64,000 nt of DNA, taken from contig OZ241326.1 of the NCBI GenBank assembly GCA_965199855.1, positions 2,211,908-2,275,907 of the forward strand, written 5' to 3'. Shown here piece after piece: positions 515-62,101 of the stretch. The notes under the pieces were generated by a model that did no database searches, was not told the DNA's origin, and was given only the letters and a program-made list of their open reading frames with translations. How positions within the stretch are numbered: the first letter of the stretch is position 1; every line of letters begins with the position of its first letter. The stretch is from a bacterium. Its GTDB lineage: Bacteria > UBA8248. The position numbers and the translations under genes were made by a program.

Positions 515-4133
<3,619 letters not shown>

Positions 4134-4259
4134 TCGATATTTCGATTGGGTTGTTGTTCTTTGATACGCCGCTATAATCGGATCGAGCCGATCCTCCAGC
4201 TCGCTTCGGCTGACCAGAAACGCCTTGTTTTCATCGCAGGACCGGCGAAGATTGAAGCC

Positions 4260-6392
4260 TCATGTCCCTCCCGCCTCGACGGCTTCAATGAAGCGGGCGA
4301 GCTCCTCGCCGATGCCTTCCAGCTCGTTATTGTCTGTCGGTCTCCCCGCGGCGTCATAGCCGATATCCCCGGCTACCGCCATGAATACCGGAGAATCGCC
4401 CAATACGCTTCGCTTTCGCTCCGCATATTCCCGCTCCATGGTTTCCCGGAGCGCATCGATTTTTCCCCGGCATTCGGCGCCGACCCGCTTTTTCCATTCC
4501 CTATAGTCTTCGGACAGGCTCAACGCTTTGCCTTCCAGCCCTTCCGGATTGTCAAAGCCTCTGAGTTCCTTGATCCGCCGCTTCTTCTCCGCGTCAATCT
4601 CCCGCAACTGCTCCGGAAAATCATGCTCTTCCCTGATTTCGTCCCGTATCTCCGCTTTCCGGTTGCGGATCTCGGCGGTTGCTTCCGAAGTCCGCTTTTT
4701 CAGGAACAGCACCGAGGTTTTCACCCCCGCCCCTTTCGCCTGAAACGCGGTTTGGGGCATGGACGCCACCGCCACGAGGCGGAAATTCTCCTCCATGCCC
4801 TCCCGCGCGTATTGGAGGCTGGAGTTGGTCAGGATGCCGTCGGGTATGACGATCGCCAGATAGCCTCCCTCGGCGAGAAACCTGTGGCATTGCTCGATAA
4901 ACAGAATTTCGGAGCTCTGGCTGTCCCGGACTGTTTCCTTGCTCTTCGGGTTCAGCCAGTCGGCTTTCTTGAGCGCGTAATCGTAGTGGCGCATGTAGGC
5001 TTGCTCGGTTCGCTTGATCTGGGAGCCGAACGGCGGATTCGTGATGATGAAGTGGAAGCGTCCGTAAACGAATCCGTTGTTTCTCGTGAGAGAAAAAATA
5101 TCGTCAGCGGACATCAGCCCGTCGGCGGCGATCACGTTCGTATGGCCGTCATCGTGGAGAATCATGTTCATCTTGGCGGTTCTGGCGATTCGATCGTTGA
5201 TTTCGATGCCGAATATGTTTTTTTCCGCGAAGCTGCGCCAGTGCCTGTCATAGTCTCTTGATTCCGCCAGATCTGCTTCAAAATTCGGATAGTATTCACT
5301 CGCCTGCCGCCTGACCTTGTCAAGCGCGTGAAGCAGAAACCCGCCGCTGCCGCAGGAGGTATCCAGAACCAGCGAGTCATTGGTTATCGGCAGCGCGTCC
5401 ACGATGAACTTCACGATGGGGCGAGGGGTGAAGAACTGCCCGAACTCTCCACGAAAATAAGAACCCATGAAAGTTTCAAAGGCCTTGCCCCTGCTGTCCA
5501 GATCGGTTTTTCCAAAATCGACGCCTTCCAGATAGCCGACGACGGTGCGCAACTTTTCGCAGCCGAGGCGAATATCCTCCTGAAAGACTTCGGGGTCTTT
5601 TTGCCGCCCCTCGGCATACAGGGCGCGGACGCGCTTTTGCAGTCCCTTGTTCGTCTTGTCTTCCGTGCTTTCGGTGAACACCTGAAAATCGTAGGGTTCC
5701 CCCTTTCTCCTGGGCTTTTTCTCGTCCCACATTTTGCAGAAAATCAGCTTGTTCAACTCGTCGAAGGCTAGCGAGGGGTCGAGTTGCCCACCCCCCCAAA
5801 GCGCCTGATGCGCCTGTCTGAACCTTCTCGTCAGCGCGTCTTCCGTTATGGCTTCGAGCTCGAACAGCCTTTGTCCGTTGGCGGAACCCCCGCCCCGGGC
5901 GTATTTGAACCTGGCGAGCCGGCTGACGCCGTATTGCGGGATATCGGGAATGGGCAAGCGCTTCTTCGGCTCTTTTTCGGGAATCTCGAAGCAGGCGTCT
6001 TTTATTCGGGAGGTTACCCAGAAATACCTGGCCCGGACTGTTCCCGTGGCGGCGTAGCTGAAAGCCTGGGCGACGGCCTGCTCGAACTCGGCTTCGGAGA
6101 CGTCCTCCGCCTTGCACTCGACGACGATATGGGCGGATTCACGCTCATCGTCGTTATAGACGATAATATCCGCCTCTCTGGTGTCCGCGCCGATTTTTAC
6201 CGGAACGAACTGCTCTATGCGCTCCGGGGCGTAGCGATAAACCAGAACCAGTTTGAGGAACGTCTCCGCCTGGACGGACTCTTCCGGCCGCGCGTAATTT
6301 CGCCTCTTGCCCTGGCGAACGTAGGTGATGTATTTCCCGTCGTCATCAAACGCGATCAAGCCTTTGTCTATTCCTTCGCGCAACAGATCCAT
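4260..6392 (-). CDS. hsdM: Type I RM N6-adenine DNA methyltransferase HsdM, 710 aa, with an N-terminal HsdR_N-like PD-(D/E)xK domain and a C-terminal coiled-coil extension.
   Basis: N6_Mtase core with the ITNPPFG (motif IV, NPPF) and SAM-binding LDTSCGSGGFL (motif I). The first ~150 aa carry D…(D/E)xK (EADIIVYNDDERESAHIVVECK), resembling the HsdR N-terminal nuclease-like domain. No hsdR gene is adjacent. Confidence 0.85.
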   Translation of the reverse strand: MDLLREGIDKGLIAFDDDGKYITYVRQGKRRNYARPEESVQAETFLKLVLVYRYAPERIEQFVPVKIGADTREADIIVYNDDERESAHIVVECKAEDVSEAEFEQAVAQAFSYAATGTVRARYFWVTSRIKDACFEIPEKEPKKRLPIPDIPQYGVSRLARFKYARGGGSANGQRLFELEAITEDALTRRFRQAHQALWGGGQLDPSLAFDELNKLIFCKMWDEKKPRRKGEPYDFQVFTESTEDKTNKGLQKRVRALYAEGRQKDPEVFQEDIRLGCEKLRTVVGYLEGVDFGKTDLDSRGKAFETFMGSYFRGEFGQFFTPRPIVKFIVDALPITNDSLVLDTSCGSGGFLLHALDKVRRQASEYYPNFEADLAESRDYDRHWRSFAEKNIFGIEINDRIARTAKMNMILHDDGHTNVIAADGLMSADDIFSLTRNNGFVYGRFHFIITNPPFGSQIKRTEQAYMRHYDYALKKADWLNPKSKETVRDSQSSEILFIEQCHRFLAEGGYLAIVIPDGILTNSSLQYAREGMEENFRLVAVASMPQTAFQAKGAGVKTSVLFLKKRTSEATAEIRNRKAEIRDEIREEHDFPEQLREIDAEKKRRIKELRGFDNPEGLEGKALSLSEDYREWKKRVGAECRGKIDALRETMEREYAERKRSVLGDSPVFMAVAGDIGYDAAGRPTDNNELEGIGEELARFIEAVEAGGT

Positions 6393-6742
6393 TCGCTTCT
6401 CATTTTCAGGAGGGGCTCGACACTATACGGGGGACGGGAGGGCGGATTCGACCATGCCATGAAAGCGAACCCGGTCGCCCCTTCCATATCACGTTCGCGC
6501 GGCTGACGCCAACCCGATCGGCGGAAATTTTCGATTCCGATGGAGTTTCGCCCCTCGGCTGTGGTAGGGTGGCCGCGCGTCAGCGGGAGGCGCCGCCCTT
6601 GCTCTCGTCACAGCCGCTTCCCGGTTCTTCGCCCGCGAAACGGCGAACCGGCCCGAAAGGCCCGCCGCCCGCGCGCCGATGAGCAAAGTCCGCAGAATCA
6701 ACCCGTTGCGCTCTCCTCCCCCGGCCCGAGGCACGGCCCGCC

Positions 6743-51032: not shown

Positions 51033-51845
51033 ATGAGCCACCTGCGCGCGCTCGCCGCGGCGGCGACGGACTTCCTCATCCCCCCGAAATGCCTTTTGTG
51101 CGCGAGCGCCCTGGAAATCGGCGGCGCGCGGACGATATGCGCGCCCTGCGACGAGGCGCTCGATCGCTTCGAGCCGCCCTGGTGCCCCAGGTGCGGCGCG
51201 CCCTTCCCCTCCCACGCCGCCCTGTCGCACTCCCCCGCCCACCACTGCGCGGAGTGCGCGGAAAACGTCTTTCACTTCGACGGGGCGCGCGCCGTCGGCG
51301 CCTTCAAGGGCTCTCTCCGGGAGCTGGTCCACCTGTTCAAATACGGAGGCGTCACCAAGCTGGCGCACGAGTTCGCCCCCCGGCTCGCCGCGCTCGCCGC
51401 GGACGAGCTGGGCGTCGGGCGGGACGATCCGGACGTGATCGTAACCCACGTGCCGATAGCGTCCGCGCGCTGGCGGGAGCGGGGCTTCGATCAAACGCGC
51501 CTGCTCGCGCTCCGGACGGCGAAGAGCCTCGGAGCGCCGCACGCGGACTGTCTGGAGCGCGCGAAGGAGACCCGTCCGCAAACCGGGCTCTCCGCGAGCG
51601 AGCGGCGCCGCAACGTACGGGGCGCCTTCCGGGCGCGCCCGAAGGCGGCGCGGATGCTCGAAGGGAAGACGTGCATCCTCCTCGACGACGTCATCACCAC
51701 CGGCTTCACCGCCTCGGCCTGCGCCCGCGAGCTCAAGCGGGCGGGCGCCGCCGCCGTGCACGCGCTCACCATCTGCCGCTCGCGAGGGCCCGCGCCCCCG
51801 CCGCGCGCGGAGGGGGTCAACGAGAGGGCTACGCATAACCTGTAA
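51033..51845 (+). CDS. ComF-family protein (double zinc ribbon plus phosphoribosyltransferase domain).
   Basis: From MSHLRAL… N-terminal CxxC…CxxC pairs and a C-terminal PRTase motif ILLDDVITTGFTASA. Confidence 0.8.
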   Translation: MSHLRALAAAATDFLIPPKCLLCASALEIGGARTICAPCDEALDRFEPPWCPRCGAPFPSHAALSHSPAHHCAECAENVFHFDGARAVGAFKGSLRELVHLFKYGGVTKLAHEFAPRLAALAADELGVGRDDPDVIVTHVPIASARWRERGFDQTRLLALRTAKSLGAPHADCLERAKETRPQTGLSASERRRNVRGAFRARPKAARMLEGKTCILLDDVITTGFTASACARELKRAGAAAVHALTICRSRGPAPPPRAEGVNERATHNL

Positions 51846-51873
51846 TTTTTCCCGCCCGTCAGGAGGAGCAAAA

Positions 51874-52680
51874 ATGCAGGATCGATACACGGGCGACGTA
51901 GGGGATTTCGGCAAATACGGACTGCTCCGCGCCATCACCCGGCCCGGGATTACGAAAAAAGACGGCCAGGAGACATTGAGCCTCGGCGTCGTGTGGTATC
52001 GCCATCCCGACGAGAAAGACACGAACGACGGCGAGCATATCGACTATCTCGGCCCTTCCGGGCGCGAGAATTTTCGGAAGTGCGATCCTGAACTATATGA
52101 TTGCCTGAGCAAGATCGTCAGATATGACTCCAAAACCAGGAAGGCAAAGGGTCGCAGGGCGATATCGAAGATCGAGAATAGCGAGATACTCGGTTCGCAA
52201 ACTCGTTTTTTCGGCAGGCGATGTCCTTATGACGCGGATGCTCGTAAAAAATGGCGCCGAGAAGCGTTGAACGAAATGAAGGGATGCGATTTGGTATTCC
52301 TCGACCCGGACAACGGGCTCAGGTGCAACCAGAACCTTGACAGCGGAAAACACGCCTACCTTGAGGAAGTCTTGAGCTTTGTTCTTCAAGGCAGCGCAGT
52401 AATTTTCTATCATCATCCTGACAGGTGAAAAACGCATAATGAACAAATCAGAAAACTCGCTCAATATATTGCTCGCAAGTTGGATAAAAATCACCGCGTA
52501 TCCGCTTTCCGTTACCGCAGAGGGAACTCCCGGGCGTTTTTCATCATTTGGCCGCGGGATCGGCAGAAAGTATTCAAGCCCCGCATGAAGGCGATTCGTG
52601 ATGGCCTGTGGGGCCGGGAATGTCGCTTTGAACTCACGGCGCGTTCCATCTCCGGCAAAAGCAGGGGCAACCCGAGTTAG
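51874..52680 (+). pseudogene. Hypothetical gene in a low-GC islet, interrupted by a single in-frame TGA (52426..52428). Candidate pseudogene.
   Basis: ORFs 51874..52428 and 52480..52680 are in the same frame with no other stop between them. No SECIS-like hairpin follows this TGA. GC content here is far below the genome background. Confidence 0.4.
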
Positions 52681-58863: not shown

Positions 58864-60255
58864 ATGCTCGACCTCAAGCCTCCCGACGCGGCGATCGAAA
58901 TCCTCCGCGCCCTGCGCGCCGCGGGCCACCGGGCGCTTCTCGCGGGAGGCTGCGTGCGCGACGCCCTCCTCGGCCGCGAGCCCAGGGACTGGGACATCGC
59001 CACGGACGCGGGCCCCGAAGCCGCGCGGACCCTCTTCGAGAAGACCGTGGCCGTGGGCGCGCGGTTCGGCGTCTCGCGCGTCCTGCTGGACGGCCGGGAG
59101 TTCGAGGTGGCGCAGTTCCGGCGGGACGGCGCCTACGAGGACGGCAGGCGGCCCGCCTCGGTTCTTCCCACCAGCGAGGAGGAGGACGCGAGGCGGCGCG
59201 ACTTCACCATCAACGGAATGTTCTACGACCCGTTCGAGCGCCGCGCGCTCGACTACGTCGGCGGCCTGCGCGACCTCGACGGAAAAATCATCCGCGCCAT
59301 CGGGGACCCGAACCTCCGCTTCCGGGAAGATCATCTGCGGATGATGCGGGCGGCGCGCTTCTCGGCGCGGTTCGGCTTCGACATCGAGCCGGCGACCGCC
59401 GCCGCCGTCCGCGCCAACGCCGGGCGCATCTCCAGAATAAGCCCCGAGAGGATTCAGGAGGAGCTGACGGCGATGCTCACCGGGGAGAATCCCCATCGCG
59501 CCCTCGCCGCGCTGGATTCGCTCGGACTCCTCGAATGCGTCCTGCCCGAGGTCGCCGCCATGAAGGGGGTGGCGCAGCCGCCGGAATTCCACCCCGAGGG
59601 CGACGTCTGGACGCACGTCCTCCTCATGCTGGCGCTCATGCGCGCCCCCTCGCCCGCGCTCGCCTGGGGCGTCCTGCTCCACGACGTCGGAAAGCCCGCC
59701 ACCTACGCGGAGGCCGACCGCATCCGCTTCAACGGGCACGACAGGGCGGGGGCGGAGATGAGCGCGAACGTCTGCGGCAGGCTGCGCATGTCCGGCGCGC
59801 GCGCGTCGAGGATTCGGGAGCTGGTCGCCAACCACATGCGCTTCATGCGCGTGGAGAAGATGCGGGAGAGCCGCCTGAAGCGGCTGCTCCGCGAGCCCTG
59901 CTTCGAGGAGCTCCTGGAGCTGCACCGCCTCGACTGCCTCGCCAGCCACGGCGATTTGAGAACCCATGAATTCTGCGTCCGGAAACGGCGCGCGCTCCGG
60001 GAGGAGGCCCTCCGCCCGCCGCGCCTGCTGGACGGCCGCGAACTGATGAAAATGGGCTATCCGCCGGGGCCGGGGCTGGGGGAGATTCTCGCCGCCATCG
60101 AGGACGCGCAGCTCGAGGGCCGCGTCTCCACCGCCGCGCAGGCCAGGGATTTCACGAGGCGAAACTTCGCCCTTCCGGAGACTCGCCCCTCCGGAAAGCC
60201 GCGCGCTCCCGCGCGGGCCGACCCGCCTCCCGGCGACCGCGGGGAGCGGCCATGA
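58864..60255 (+). CDS. cca: CCA tRNA nucleotidyltransferase (PolyA polymerase head domain plus HD domain).
   Basis: From MLDLKPPDAAIEIL… Nucleotidyltransferase motif …LAGGCVRDALLGREPRDWDIAT…; RDFTINGM; and a C-terminal HD region (LLHDVGK). Confidence 0.85.
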   Translation: MLDLKPPDAAIEILRALRAAGHRALLAGGCVRDALLGREPRDWDIATDAGPEAARTLFEKTVAVGARFGVSRVLLDGREFEVAQFRRDGAYEDGRRPASVLPTSEEEDARRRDFTINGMFYDPFERRALDYVGGLRDLDGKIIRAIGDPNLRFREDHLRMMRAARFSARFGFDIEPATAAAVRANAGRISRISPERIQEELTAMLTGENPHRALAALDSLGLLECVLPEVAAMKGVAQPPEFHPEGDVWTHVLLMLALMRAPSPALAWGVLLHDVGKPATYAEADRIRFNGHDRAGAEMSANVCGRLRMSGARASRIRELVANHMRFMRVEKMRESRLKRLLREPCFEELLELHRLDCLASHGDLRTHEFCVRKRRALREEALRPPRLLDGRELMKMGYPPGPGLGEILAAIEDAQLEGRVSTAAQARDFTRRNFALPETRPSGKPRAPARADPPPGDRGERP

Positions 60256-60785
60256 CGCGAACCTCCATCATGACGGCGCGCGAGCTCGAAATCTCCCTCG
60301 GAAGAATCGCTTCCGAGATGGCGGAGGCGCGCGCGGCGGACGCGGGTCTCGCCCTCGTCGGAATCCTCACGCGCGGCGAGCCGCTGGCGCGGAGGCTCCG
60401 CAGGCGCATTCAGGAGCTCGAGAACGTCGCGCCCGCCCTCGGCGCCCTCGACATCGGAATTCACCGCGACGACGCGGGACACCCCGCGAAGGGGCGCGGC
60501 TTCGAGCCGACGCTCATCGACTTCGACATCACCGACCGCCACGTCTTCCTGGTGGACGACGTGTTCTTCACGGGCCGAACCGCGCGCGCCGCCCTGGACG
60601 CCCTGATGGAGCTGGGGCGGCCGAAGCGCATCTGGCTCGCCGTCCTGATAGATCGGGGACACCGGGAGCTGCCCTTCCGCCCCGACTTCATCGGCAAGAG
60701 CGTGCCCACCTCGCTCGATGAGCGCGTCCAGGTGCGGATGCGGGAGGTGGACGGCGAGGACGGGGTATGGCTCGCGAAAGGATGA
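60252..60785 (+). CDS. PyrR-like regulator / uracil phosphoribosyltransferase (second paralog).
   Basis: 177 aa. PRTase motif VFLVDDVFFTGRTARAA, colinear with PyrR. Its ATG overlaps the cca stop (ATGA), so it is co-transcribed with cca. Confidence 0.8.
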   Translation: MTRTSIMTARELEISLGRIASEMAEARAADAGLALVGILTRGEPLARRLRRRIQELENVAPALGALDIGIHRDDAGHPAKGRGFEPTLIDFDITDRHVFLVDDVFFTGRTARAALDALMELGRPKRIWLAVLIDRGHRELPFRPDFIGKSVPTSLDERVQVRMREVDGEDGVWLAKG

Positions 60786-60948
60786 GCCGCTGCGGGGGAG
60801 AGGCGGCCGCGCTTCCCCAGGTTGCCTTTTTTATATTTTGAAGTCCAGGTCGATTTACGCACCCTCAATGCCCTGCAACCTGTCTCGCAGGGCCGCTCGC
60901 TGTTCAGGGGACATAGCCGCCGCTAACTTCTTGAATTCATGTATTTCT

Positions 60949-61422
60949 TTATCCTTTTTCATCCGAATAGGGCATTCTATCGAATCTCTTCAGTTCGACG
61001 TTGATCTTATCAATACGGAGGCAGTCTCCGCGCGATCTGACCATAAACTGATACTGATTTTCTCCTCCTAGTGGAGCTCGAGAAAATTCGTTTCTCGCAT
61101 TTACGAATGGAGCCAAACGTCCGCAGAACGCCTCAAGACTCCGCGTTTTAAGCTGGGCGATGACGAGCCTTCCCTCAATACGCGCTTGTTCTTCATCTTT
61201 CATCATCTCTTCTGGTATGCCGTGCCAATCCTTCTTTCCACCCAGAACCCACCAGTTTCGGCCTGATTCATCTTGCAACCACTTTTGGCGTTTCCCTACT
61301 GGCGTCAGGGTGACGTCGAATTTTGCGTGAATAGCATCTATGACGGGCCGCCTATCAAAATTGTTGAATTTTTCCGATGACTTCTTCATGCTTTCCTCTC
61401 CCAAGCGGCTTGAAAGCTCCAT
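60949..61422 (-). CDS. Hypothetical protein (157 aa) in a low-GC islet.
   Basis: ORF in a ~45-50% GC segment. No recognisable family. Start overlaps the upstream gene's stop by 1 codon spacing. Confidence 0.4.
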   Translation of the reverse strand: MELSSRLGEESMKKSSEKFNNFDRRPVIDAIHAKFDVTLTPVGKRQKWLQDESGRNWWVLGGKKDWHGIPEEMMKDEEQARIEGRLVIAQLKTRSLEAFCGRLAPFVNARNEFSRAPLGGENQYQFMVRSRGDCLRIDKINVELKRFDRMPYSDEKG

Positions 61423-61424
61423 CG

Positions 61425-61955
61425 CTAGTCCTCCTGTCTCTCTTCGTCCTCCTCTCCGGATTGATTGAGGGTCGCCGCGTCCAGCCCCGCTCCCAGGTTG
61501 TCGGCCAGCTCACCCCAGCCGTCCATAAAATCTCTTGCATCGTTGAACACGACGAAGGCAGCGCCGCCAGCCTCATAGAGCTGAGGAGCCGCCGCGAGTA
61601 GAGCGGCATCATCAAGGCTGGATATGTTGTCCGCCACAATCCGACCGACTGGCCCTTGAGTGTCGCAGACGGAATAGCTGGCCCCATTTTTGACGGGGAT
61701 CCAGCTCCGGGGCGGCCGTATGGATCGGCTCAACAGGACGCCGAACGCGAGCTTGGCCAGCACCGGAATCTTCTTGCCCGGCTTGAACCAACCGTTTATA
61801 GTGGTTTCGGGCACATCCAGAACCGCGCTGAGATTGCGTTGCCAGCCGCGTCGCCCGTATCTCCGCTCGAAAGCGGACCTGAGATCCATATCTTTCACAT
61901 AGTTGGTCAGCCCTTCCCGGAAATCAGCGTCGGCGATCATTCTCAAGTTGCCCAT
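61425..61955 (-). CDS. Hypothetical HTH-containing protein (176 aa) in a low-GC islet.
   Basis: Predicted helix-turn-helix around …LSAVLDVPETTINGWFKPGKKIPVLAKLAFGVL… with an acidic C-terminal tail. It is the upstream gene of a two-gene unit. Confidence 0.4.
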   Translation of the reverse strand: MGNLRMIADADFREGLTNYVKDMDLRSAFERRYGRRGWQRNLSAVLDVPETTINGWFKPGKKIPVLAKLAFGVLLSRSIRPPRSWIPVKNGASYSVCDTQGPVGRIVADNISSLDDAALLAAAPQLYEAGGAAFVVFNDARDFMDGWGELADNLGAGLDAATLNQSGEEDEERQED

Positions 61956-62101
61956 TCCATCAATCTCCCGCGTAAAATTACGAATCTCATTCTAAAAACT
62001 CTTGTAATACACGAAATTAAGTTTGTCAAGAATTAAAATAACATTTATTTAAGGAATTTCGGGTTTCAAGGGATTCCCCGGAATGAAATCAAAGATTTCC
62101 C

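Follow-up and report, generated by a model that had tools for sequence, protein, structure and literature searches.

At the locus considered here, a short AT-rich tract that carries two small genes lies between a pyrR-type phosphoribosyltransferase gene and an EamA-family gene in DNA that is otherwise rich in GC, and the question that it raises is what kind of unit these two genes form. The window, that is the whole stretch of 64,000 nucleotides analysed, has a mean GC of 0.676 (sd 0.055); in 500-nt windows, only three stretches of it have a GC below 0.5, and the islet reaches a minimum of 0.47. In 300-nt windows, GC drops from about 0.72, with values of 0.69–0.75 on both flanks, to 0.45–0.62 within the islet, with 0.45–0.49 between about 60800 and 62150, which bears out the sharp fall reported in a first-pass annotation of the sequence. 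The same annotation had described a 1.3-kb islet between pyrR2 and EamA, and this description is accurate: the islet measures exactly 1316 bp, and the neighbours match PF00156 and PF00892.

60252 to 60785, plus strand: pyrR-type phosphoribosyltransferase gene (PF00156, 2.4e-15)
60786 to 62101, no strand: AT-rich islet of 1316 bp, from the pyrR-type stop (60785) to the EamA stop (62102)
60795 to 60818, plus strand: hairpin GGGGAGAGGCGGCCGCGCTTCCCC followed by a T-run, the pyrR terminator and edge of the islet, from palindrome search and sequence
60949 to 61422, minus strand: gene B, the variable partner, 157 aa as it stands, with an alternative start at 61389
61425 to 61955, minus strand: gene A, the constant partner, 176 aa
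62102 to 63007, minus strand: EamA-family gene (PF00892, 7e-23)

Between pyrR and EamA, the islet contains A and B as its only genes, both on the minus strand and co-directional, as first noticed; the start-to-stop overlap with which they had been credited proved to be a gap of 2 nt (CG) between the TAG stop of A (61427-61425) and the ATG of B at 61422. Flanking direct repeats, tRNA genes and Rfam RNAs are absent in and beside the islet, so that neither an integration scar nor an RNA antitoxin was found. Moreover, PLSDB plasmids, INPHARED phages and IMG/VR contigs have no match to either A or B, and so offer no evidence that the islet came from a plasmid or a phage.

The larger protein, A, is composed of a helical N-terminal part, a putative three-helix helix-turn-helix (HTH) at about residues 38-75, a small C-terminal domain of a sheet plus helices, and an acidic tail, SGEEDEERQED, which had been recognised from the outset. 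An AlphaFold model based on a 45-sequence alignment (pLDDT 79, pTM 0.46) displays five N-terminal helices, a three-stranded sheet and C-terminal helices. To the eye, WQRKLGAVLDVPETTVNGWFKSGKFPxLAKLAFGVLL resembles an XRE helix-turn-helix, and the first-pass annotation had called the HTH XRE/Cro-like. This label receives no profile support, as no HTH in Pfam or NCBIfam matches at E<=1, hhalign against 434 Cro is null, and Foldseek against PDB returns nothing at E<1. In a sequence-profile search of PDB, the matches were chance ones only, with homeodomains at E 0.07, and fold searches found no solved structural relative of the C-terminal domain. Pfam, NCBIfam, PHROGs and PADLOC yielded nothing usable for A (noise only in NCBIfam and PHROGs); 53 homologues were collected by word-indexed search, and PF27050.1 is a precomputed match on three A homologues.

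The smaller protein, B, has the PD-(D/E)xK restriction-endonuclease fold. It had been described as a protein without recognisable family, and this holds for Pfam, NCBIfam, PHROGs and PADLOC, in none of which it has a match (again, noise only in NCBIfam and PHROGs). The word-indexed search found 21 homologues of B, and a profile search among 1.84 billion representatives recovered a family of 252 clusters at E<=1e-3.

The two genes are conserved as a pair. At least 11 independent loci in several phyla have A next to B (L001, L003, L010, L012, L013, L017, L018, L019, L020-22, L023 and the clade of the window). The source MAGs are labelled as Alpha- and Gammaproteobacteria, Candidatus Entotheonella and Defluviicoccus, and the spread takes in Nitrospinota-like MAGs as well, the isocitrate dehydrogenase of the window falling into a 90%-identity cluster with proteins labelled Nitrospinota; one Entotheonella chromosome possesses two copies of the cassette. 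A and B overlap by 4 nt in L003 and L023, compared with the 2-nt gap in the window, and they are fused in frame in P0077 and L018, so the pair is known both as two genes and as one fused gene. In L001, a DUF4258 gene lies between A and B, and B therefore need not be the direct partner of A. The module is AT-richer than its host in every case, with GC of 0.64-0.73 in the host, 0.58-0.63 in A and 0.46-0.55 in B. As in the window, the pair of L019-L023 sits between housekeeping genes with no mobility genes, and in L001 and L003 it is found in ICE or defence-island settings, with relaxase, integrase, IS, R-M or DndB-like genes beside it.

The partners differ in how well they are preserved. Over eight loci, mean identity is 71% for A and 45% for B, with B lower in 28 of 28 pairs, and in the comparison of L019 with L021, an independent lineage, the flanks are 91-93%, A is 85% and B only 41% identical. 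B is frameshifted or fragmentary behind A in L013 and L017, and it is also disrupted in L027, P0018, P0020 and the alleles of the window, whereas A is broken only in the homologue P0073.

A is the constant part of the cassette, and B is an exchangeable, variable cargo. A is followed in L014 by a PemK/MazF gene (PF02452, 2.7e-12), which it overlaps by 4 nt, in L011 by a DUF4258 gene (24.4 bits, with 24.1 bits for the DUF4258 gene of L001, both below the cut-off of 25), in L016 by a gene for an ankyrin protein, and in L015 by nothing. DUF4258 is listed among the RelE/ParE-superfamily toxins of toxin-antitoxin (TA) systems with an antitoxin-first gene order (PMC11980606). The A proteins of L003, where the cargo is B, and of L014, where it is PemK, are near-identical and differ in their last residues only, which puts the junction of the swap at the 3' end of A. 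Between a B-bearing and a PemK-bearing locus, the identity of A is about 85-90%, as estimated by eye from the alignment. As near-identical A proteins precede either B or PemK, A does not co-evolve with the cargo, unlike a binding antitoxin.

A promoter-like element is present upstream of A only, with none ahead of B, and is accompanied by a short palindrome.

62001 to 62029, minus strand: putative cassette promoter, TTGACA (62029-62024), 17-nt spacer, TACAAG (62006-62001)
62053 to 62061, minus strand: candidate operator CGAAATTCC, which departs from the palindrome CGA(A/T)ATTCG at one position

The arrangement TTGAC(A/T)-17-TAT-rich hexamer, 59 nt before the start of A, recurs in 11 other loci from several phyla; a generic promoter scan missed the copy in the window because its -10 box ends in G. 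With at most one mismatch, the palindrome CGA(A/T)ATTCG has 13 matches in 12 upstream regions, against 0.5 +/- 0.7 in shuffled sequences (never more than 4 in 1000 shuffles) and 0.05 per 120 nt elsewhere in the loci; since these very sequences served to read off the motif by eye, the enrichment is only indicative. In the other loci, the palindrome stands directly beside the -35 box. Both promoter and palindrome are kept whatever the cargo, which is compatible with self-regulation by A, the one gene that all loci share. The form CGAAATTCG of the palindrome is a candidate operator motif of the cassette promoters.

The cassette can tentatively be understood as a horizontally spread, self-contained two-gene TA or small-defence module, a reading that we regard as somewhat short of probable and that is the most economical one. 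It is suggested by the recurrent pairing of A with B, by the AT-rich and autonomous character of the module, by PemK/MazF and DUF4258 genes occupying the toxin slot behind A, and by the nuclease fold of B. The fusions of B to DNA-binding domains, and its repeated disruption where A is broken only once, would suit an effector. In the proposed mechanism, A would bind DNA and repress its own sigma-70-type promoter via the CGA(A/T)ATTCG palindrome beside the -35 box, and this repression, possibly together with direct binding, would hold the downstream gene in check and thereby neutralise B. Once released, B would act as a toxic nuclease harming the cell or an invader, and elsewhere MazF/PemK or DUF4258 (RelE-superfamily) toxin genes take the place of B behind this A gene and its promoter. 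The first-pass annotation had likened the islet to a TA or a small defence or abortive-infection module; the paired architecture sustains this likeness, as does the co-conservation of the two genes, whose absence would have spoken against it; no TA or defence profile matched, and a TA mechanism is inferred for A and B. Neither protein found a single family in PADLOC-DB 2.0.0 at E<=10. The absence of such a profile match suggests a case against the TA-like reading, as do the lack of profile support for the HTH of A, the lack of co-variation between A and its cargo, the missing canonical motif of B and the truncation of the B copy in the window, the last two of which are treated below.

Comparison with type II TA systems that have HTH antitoxins, such as HigBA, MqsRA, HipBA and Xre-RES, shows both likeness and difference. 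As in these systems, one operon holds two small, coupled, co-directional genes, the first of which is DNA-binding-like, with a putative HTH in A and a palindrome, the putative operator, at its own promoter; the module is AT-rich, patchy, at times multi-copy and situated between housekeeping genes; and A swaps partners with MazF/PemK (PF02452 in L014) and DUF4258 toxins (L011 and L001, below cut-off). However, A and B belong to no antitoxin or toxin family in profile searches (for B, those of Pfam, NCBIfam, PADLOC and PHROG), A is unusually large at 176 aa and has an extra conserved C-terminal domain, and the fold of the B effector is PD-(D/E)xK rather than that of RelE, MazF, PIN or HEPN. In addition, the cognate co-evolution of antitoxin and toxin is not seen, given the 71% versus 45% identity above. 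HTH-type regulators upstream of toxic or defensive cargo are also familiar from restriction-modification systems, as C proteins, and from defence systems, as BrxR/CapW-type regulators. A would resemble these in its place upstream of the cargo, its own putative operator and its constancy while the cargo differs, but it has no sequence or profile match with XRE, WYL or C-protein families, and no methyltransferase partner, A and B being alone between pyrR and EamA.

The architecture is of a familiar kind, and both protein families are uncharacterised. If the TA-like or defence reading is true, these two families would be added to the repertoire of TA and defence cassettes, the first as a regulator or antidote of HTH type that comes with a conserved operator, and the second as a family with a nuclease fold and non-canonical conserved residues, which numbers about 250 clusters at 50% identity. 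Moreover, a constant regulator with rapidly exchanged cargo would make a clean natural example among uncultured bacteria of several phyla.

The main rival explanation, rather unlikely in our estimation, takes B for a conditional type IV-like restriction nuclease and A for its transcriptional controller, in the manner of a C protein, or for its DNA-targeting partner, with the fast evolution of B reflecting changing target specificity. The structural relatives of B speak for it. The best solved-structure match is NhoI (168 aa), with PvuII and DpnI also among the matches, and the order of secondary-structure elements in B parallels that of NhoI, two C-terminal helices included. NhoI depends on 5mC, is small and solitary, and has a WD...QVK site; in the BisI family, of which it is a member, the active site has the form E...WD/AD...Q-x-K (PMC11347163). 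Like the BisI-family enzymes NhoI and Eco15I, and like PvuII, B is of similar size, has a similar order of secondary structure and is solitary, with no adjacent methyltransferase gene, as in the BisI family. Nevertheless, no sequence relationship to this family is detectable, since hhalign of B against NhoI/BisI gave a probability of 0.05, and the sequence-profile search of PDB found azurin as a chance match only, and no nuclease.

In a 117-sequence alignment, the conserved polar residues of B are K18, D23, R24 (98%), E32, K47, D51 (86%) and W66-H67-G68 (H 95%). D23 and E32 lie on helix 1, D51 in the loop before or at the start of strand 2, and W66-H67-G68 on strand 3, so that B conserves D23/E32, K47, D51 and W-H-G on elements equivalent to those of the BisI family. 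This alignment shows no conservation of the canonical D...(D/E)xK motif, and strand 3 has no (D/E)xK, which counts against the conditional nuclease, as does the want of a Q-x-K at that place; an AQxK exists in the subclade of the window only, on a later strand, and is not family-wide. As the conserved residues occupy active-site elements of the fold without a (D/E)xK, catalysis by B appears plausible but non-canonical.

The domain companions of B point in the same direction as its fold. B is fused to a HARE-HTH domain (PF05066, 1.4e-8), to RHH-like N-termini, to the C-terminal part of DndB, and to canonical PD-ExK or REase-like domains (P0197), and the PD-ExK domain of the P0197 fusion also forms a gene of its own in L002, where it precedes a distant B. 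The HARE-HTH domain is named for its occurrence in restriction endonucleases. The RHH-B fusion P0136 is a solitary gene with no antidote gene, and the existence of solitary fusions and A-B fusions is hard to reconcile with B as an unconditional poison. The gene of 184 aa ahead of that B in L002 was considered as a diverged A and rejected, as its hhalign probability was 0.4% and it carries the canonical PD-ExK domain. The defence-island setting of L003 also favours the conditional nuclease, which in addition accounts for the failure of A to co-vary with cargo, for the tolerated solitary fusions of DNA-binding domains with B, and for the diversification of B into mosaic alleles with the reading frame maintained. 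It accounts less well for the other cargoes of A, because PemK and DUF4258 are classic TA toxins and not restriction enzymes, and for the missing PADLOC match of B.

In a further proposal, A with its promoter and operator would be a portable expression platform found across phyla, behind which recombination at the 3' end of A swaps the toxic cargo (B alleles, MazF, DUF4258). B would stand at the root of a PD-(D/E)xK branch not described before, its active site would include a His, and it would be a specificity-diversifying nuclease that perhaps senses DNA modification. This would account for B alleles whose age or divergence greatly exceeds that of their host genomes. As a whole, this proposal is to be taken as unlikely.

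It is also conceivable, and quite improbable, that the pair is a split one-component regulator, in which B is a non-catalytic domain with a fold derived from PD-(D/E)xK and responds to a ligand or to the state of DNA, the DNA-binding module is either fused to it (RHH, HARE-HTH, A) or separate (A), and the pair controls genes without being toxic. The recurrence of a DNA-binding domain with B, fused or adjacent, the solitary fusions and the absent catalytic motif would all suit such a regulator, and by eye the N-termini of the RHH-B fusions have a likeness to the SeqA N-terminal motif that is not significant in Pfam. However, acidic, basic and His residues of B are strongly conserved on helix 1, at the start of strand 2 and on strand 3, bona fide toxins replace B behind the same A gene, and an AT-rich, patchy and repeatedly inactivated module behaves as a selfish or conflict gene, and not as a housekeeping regulator.

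Returning to the TA-like or defence cassette, the copy of B in this genome deserves attention in its own right, as the 157-aa reading frame that had been taken for the whole gene is incomplete. Full-length relatives of B comprise about 175-194 aa and end in two helices. As for the N-terminus, most homologues start at what is here Met12 (ATG 61389), a codon served by a GGAGAGG ribosome-binding site of its own.

60855 to 60962, minus strand: remnant ORF MKKDKEIHEFKKLAAAMSPEQRAALRDRLQGIEGA, 35 aa, the detached C-terminal helices of B in the +1 frame
60958 to 60959, minus strand: junction where the loss of 8 nt (AGATAAGC in the sister species) truncates B, from alignment with L009 and L027

The ATG of the remnant ORF sits 11 nt before the stop of B, and its product resembles the C-termini of full-length B proteins, with 88% identity to P0003 over 34 aa and 48% to L001 over 29 aa. 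When L009, from a sister species (about 86% identical overall), is aligned with the window and the relatives closest to it, these prove to have lost 8 nt at 60959/60958, which shifts the frame and removes the last 35 residues of B. The L027 allele, from the same species, and the protein P0005 keep these 8 nt and have a CAA>TAA change at the same place. Hence, by deletion or by nonsense codon, all B alleles seen in the species end just before the C-terminal helices. With the last two helices gone in every allele, the B effector of this genome is probably attenuated, and A is kept intact. Programmed frameshifting at an A-run, linking B to the remnant ORF, was also considered; the 8-nt deletion is the simpler account, and a nonsense codon is found at the same spot elsewhere. 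For genome annotation, the islet would on this reading be foreign conflict DNA with a truncated effector, and would belong neither to pyrimidine metabolism nor to transport.

At least 12 contigs of the species have the islet in this position, as does one sister species; all 12 of the 12 contigs with an identical PyrR protein carry it. A is 98.7-100% identical among these contigs, whereas B falls into three or four discrete mosaic alleles of 81-90% identity, with indels that are all multiples of three or compensated. On the same contigs, dS is 0.007-0.03 in A and pyrR, and that of B, 0.13-0.18 in most strain pairs and 0.036 between the window and L004, is 5-20 times that of the flanks. The dN/dS of B is 0.9-1.1, and 2.8 for the window versus L004. 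One allele group of B is without the near-invariant W66-H67, and L027 has frameshifts and an A-B read-through. Nonetheless, no stop interrupts the 157 codons in any of three diverged allele groups, and the chance of this under random substitution is 0.04-0.21 per pair.

The least probable explanation holds that the cassette is a relic in this genome, with B dead and drifting and A persisting by chance, as an orphan regulator or as an anti-addiction gene; the shared point of truncation, the further damage in L027, the loss of W66-H67 in one group and a dN/dS near one would agree with it, but the open codons, the frame-preserving indels and the fixation of the islet in every contig of the species and its sister speak against it, and relaxed selection alone does not produce a dS so far above that of the flanks. 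A diversity-generating retroelement was likewise weighed for the hypervariability of B and discarded, as there is neither a reverse transcriptase nor a template repeat, and the substitutions are a mixture of transitions and transversions. The diversity of B would be accounted for by diversifying selection or by recombination out of a common pool of alleles.

Gene B (60949-61422, minus strand), which lies directly downstream of gene A, is a polymorphism hot spot when the window is compared with the contigs of other strains and a sister species (L004-L009 and L025-L033). Three to four mosaic alleles of B occur, with 81-90% identity and in-frame indels, while the flanks and gene A of the same strains are 99-100% identical. 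In the strain comparison, dS of B is 5 to 20 times that of the flanks, and its dN/dS is about 1 or higher.

B is truncated at one point by either of two separate lesions, as observed across the window (60958-60962), the contig L027 and the protein P0005. The first, an 8-nt deletion, produces a C-terminus of ...YSDEKG*, and the second, a CAA>TAA substitution, produces ...YSDEDK*. The sequence 3' of the lesions, encoding the lost helices, is nearly unaltered and has gained an in-frame ATG.

Variation is also present elsewhere in the islet. Upstream of A, the region 62022-62081 is variable between strains: in one allele group, 20 nt immediately upstream of the -35 box are deleted. Gene A itself is invariant. 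At the site corresponding to 60820-60822, which separates the B remnant from the terminator hairpin of pyrR, the window and two contigs lack 17 nt (GAACGCATTGCTTTGAT or similar) that are inserted in other strains and in the sister species.

What follows A also differs between loci. L003 and L014, two other loci with A, encode near-identical A proteins, followed by B in L003 and by a PemK/MazF toxin in L014. The differences between these A proteins are confined to roughly the last 10 residues, which suggests that recombination occurred at the 3' end of A. In L016, from a Defluviicoccus MAG, the gene after A (1984-2871) is not toxin-like but encodes a 295-aa ankyrin-repeat protein. Moreover, A and B are fused in frame on two unrelated metagenome contigs (L018, 3025-4083, and that of protein P0077), with the acidic tail of A as the junction. 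A distant B homologue in L002 has as its upstream neighbor a canonical PD-ExK nuclease domain (GPDII...WWVVECKG; 5319-5873), and the same domain is fused C-terminally to B in another organism (P0197).

In the protein database, the A homologues P0044, P0060 and P0061 carry a precomputed match to PF27050.1; if this entry is a recent DUF built on the family of A, then A has already been catalogued.

Two further AT-rich islets are found in the window:

2800-6400, second islet, GC 0.44-0.59, restriction-modification genes
2841-4133, minus strand, type I specificity-domain protein (PF01420, 3e-20), second islet
4260-6392, minus strand, 710-aa fusion of HSDR_N_2 and N6_Mtase/Eco57I-type domains, second islet
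51800-52500, third islet, GC about 0.49, orphan ORF
51874-52428, plus strand, orphan ORF of 184 aa, third islet

Given the restriction-modification genes of the second islet, low-GC islets in this genome tend to contain defence genes. The 184-aa ORF of the third has no match in Pfam and is unrelated to A and B by tblastn. A Nitrospinota-like, uncultured bacterium is the probable host. The isocitrate dehydrogenase encoded at 1465-2718 falls into a 90%-identity cluster with proteins labelled Nitrospinota bacterium (MAG).
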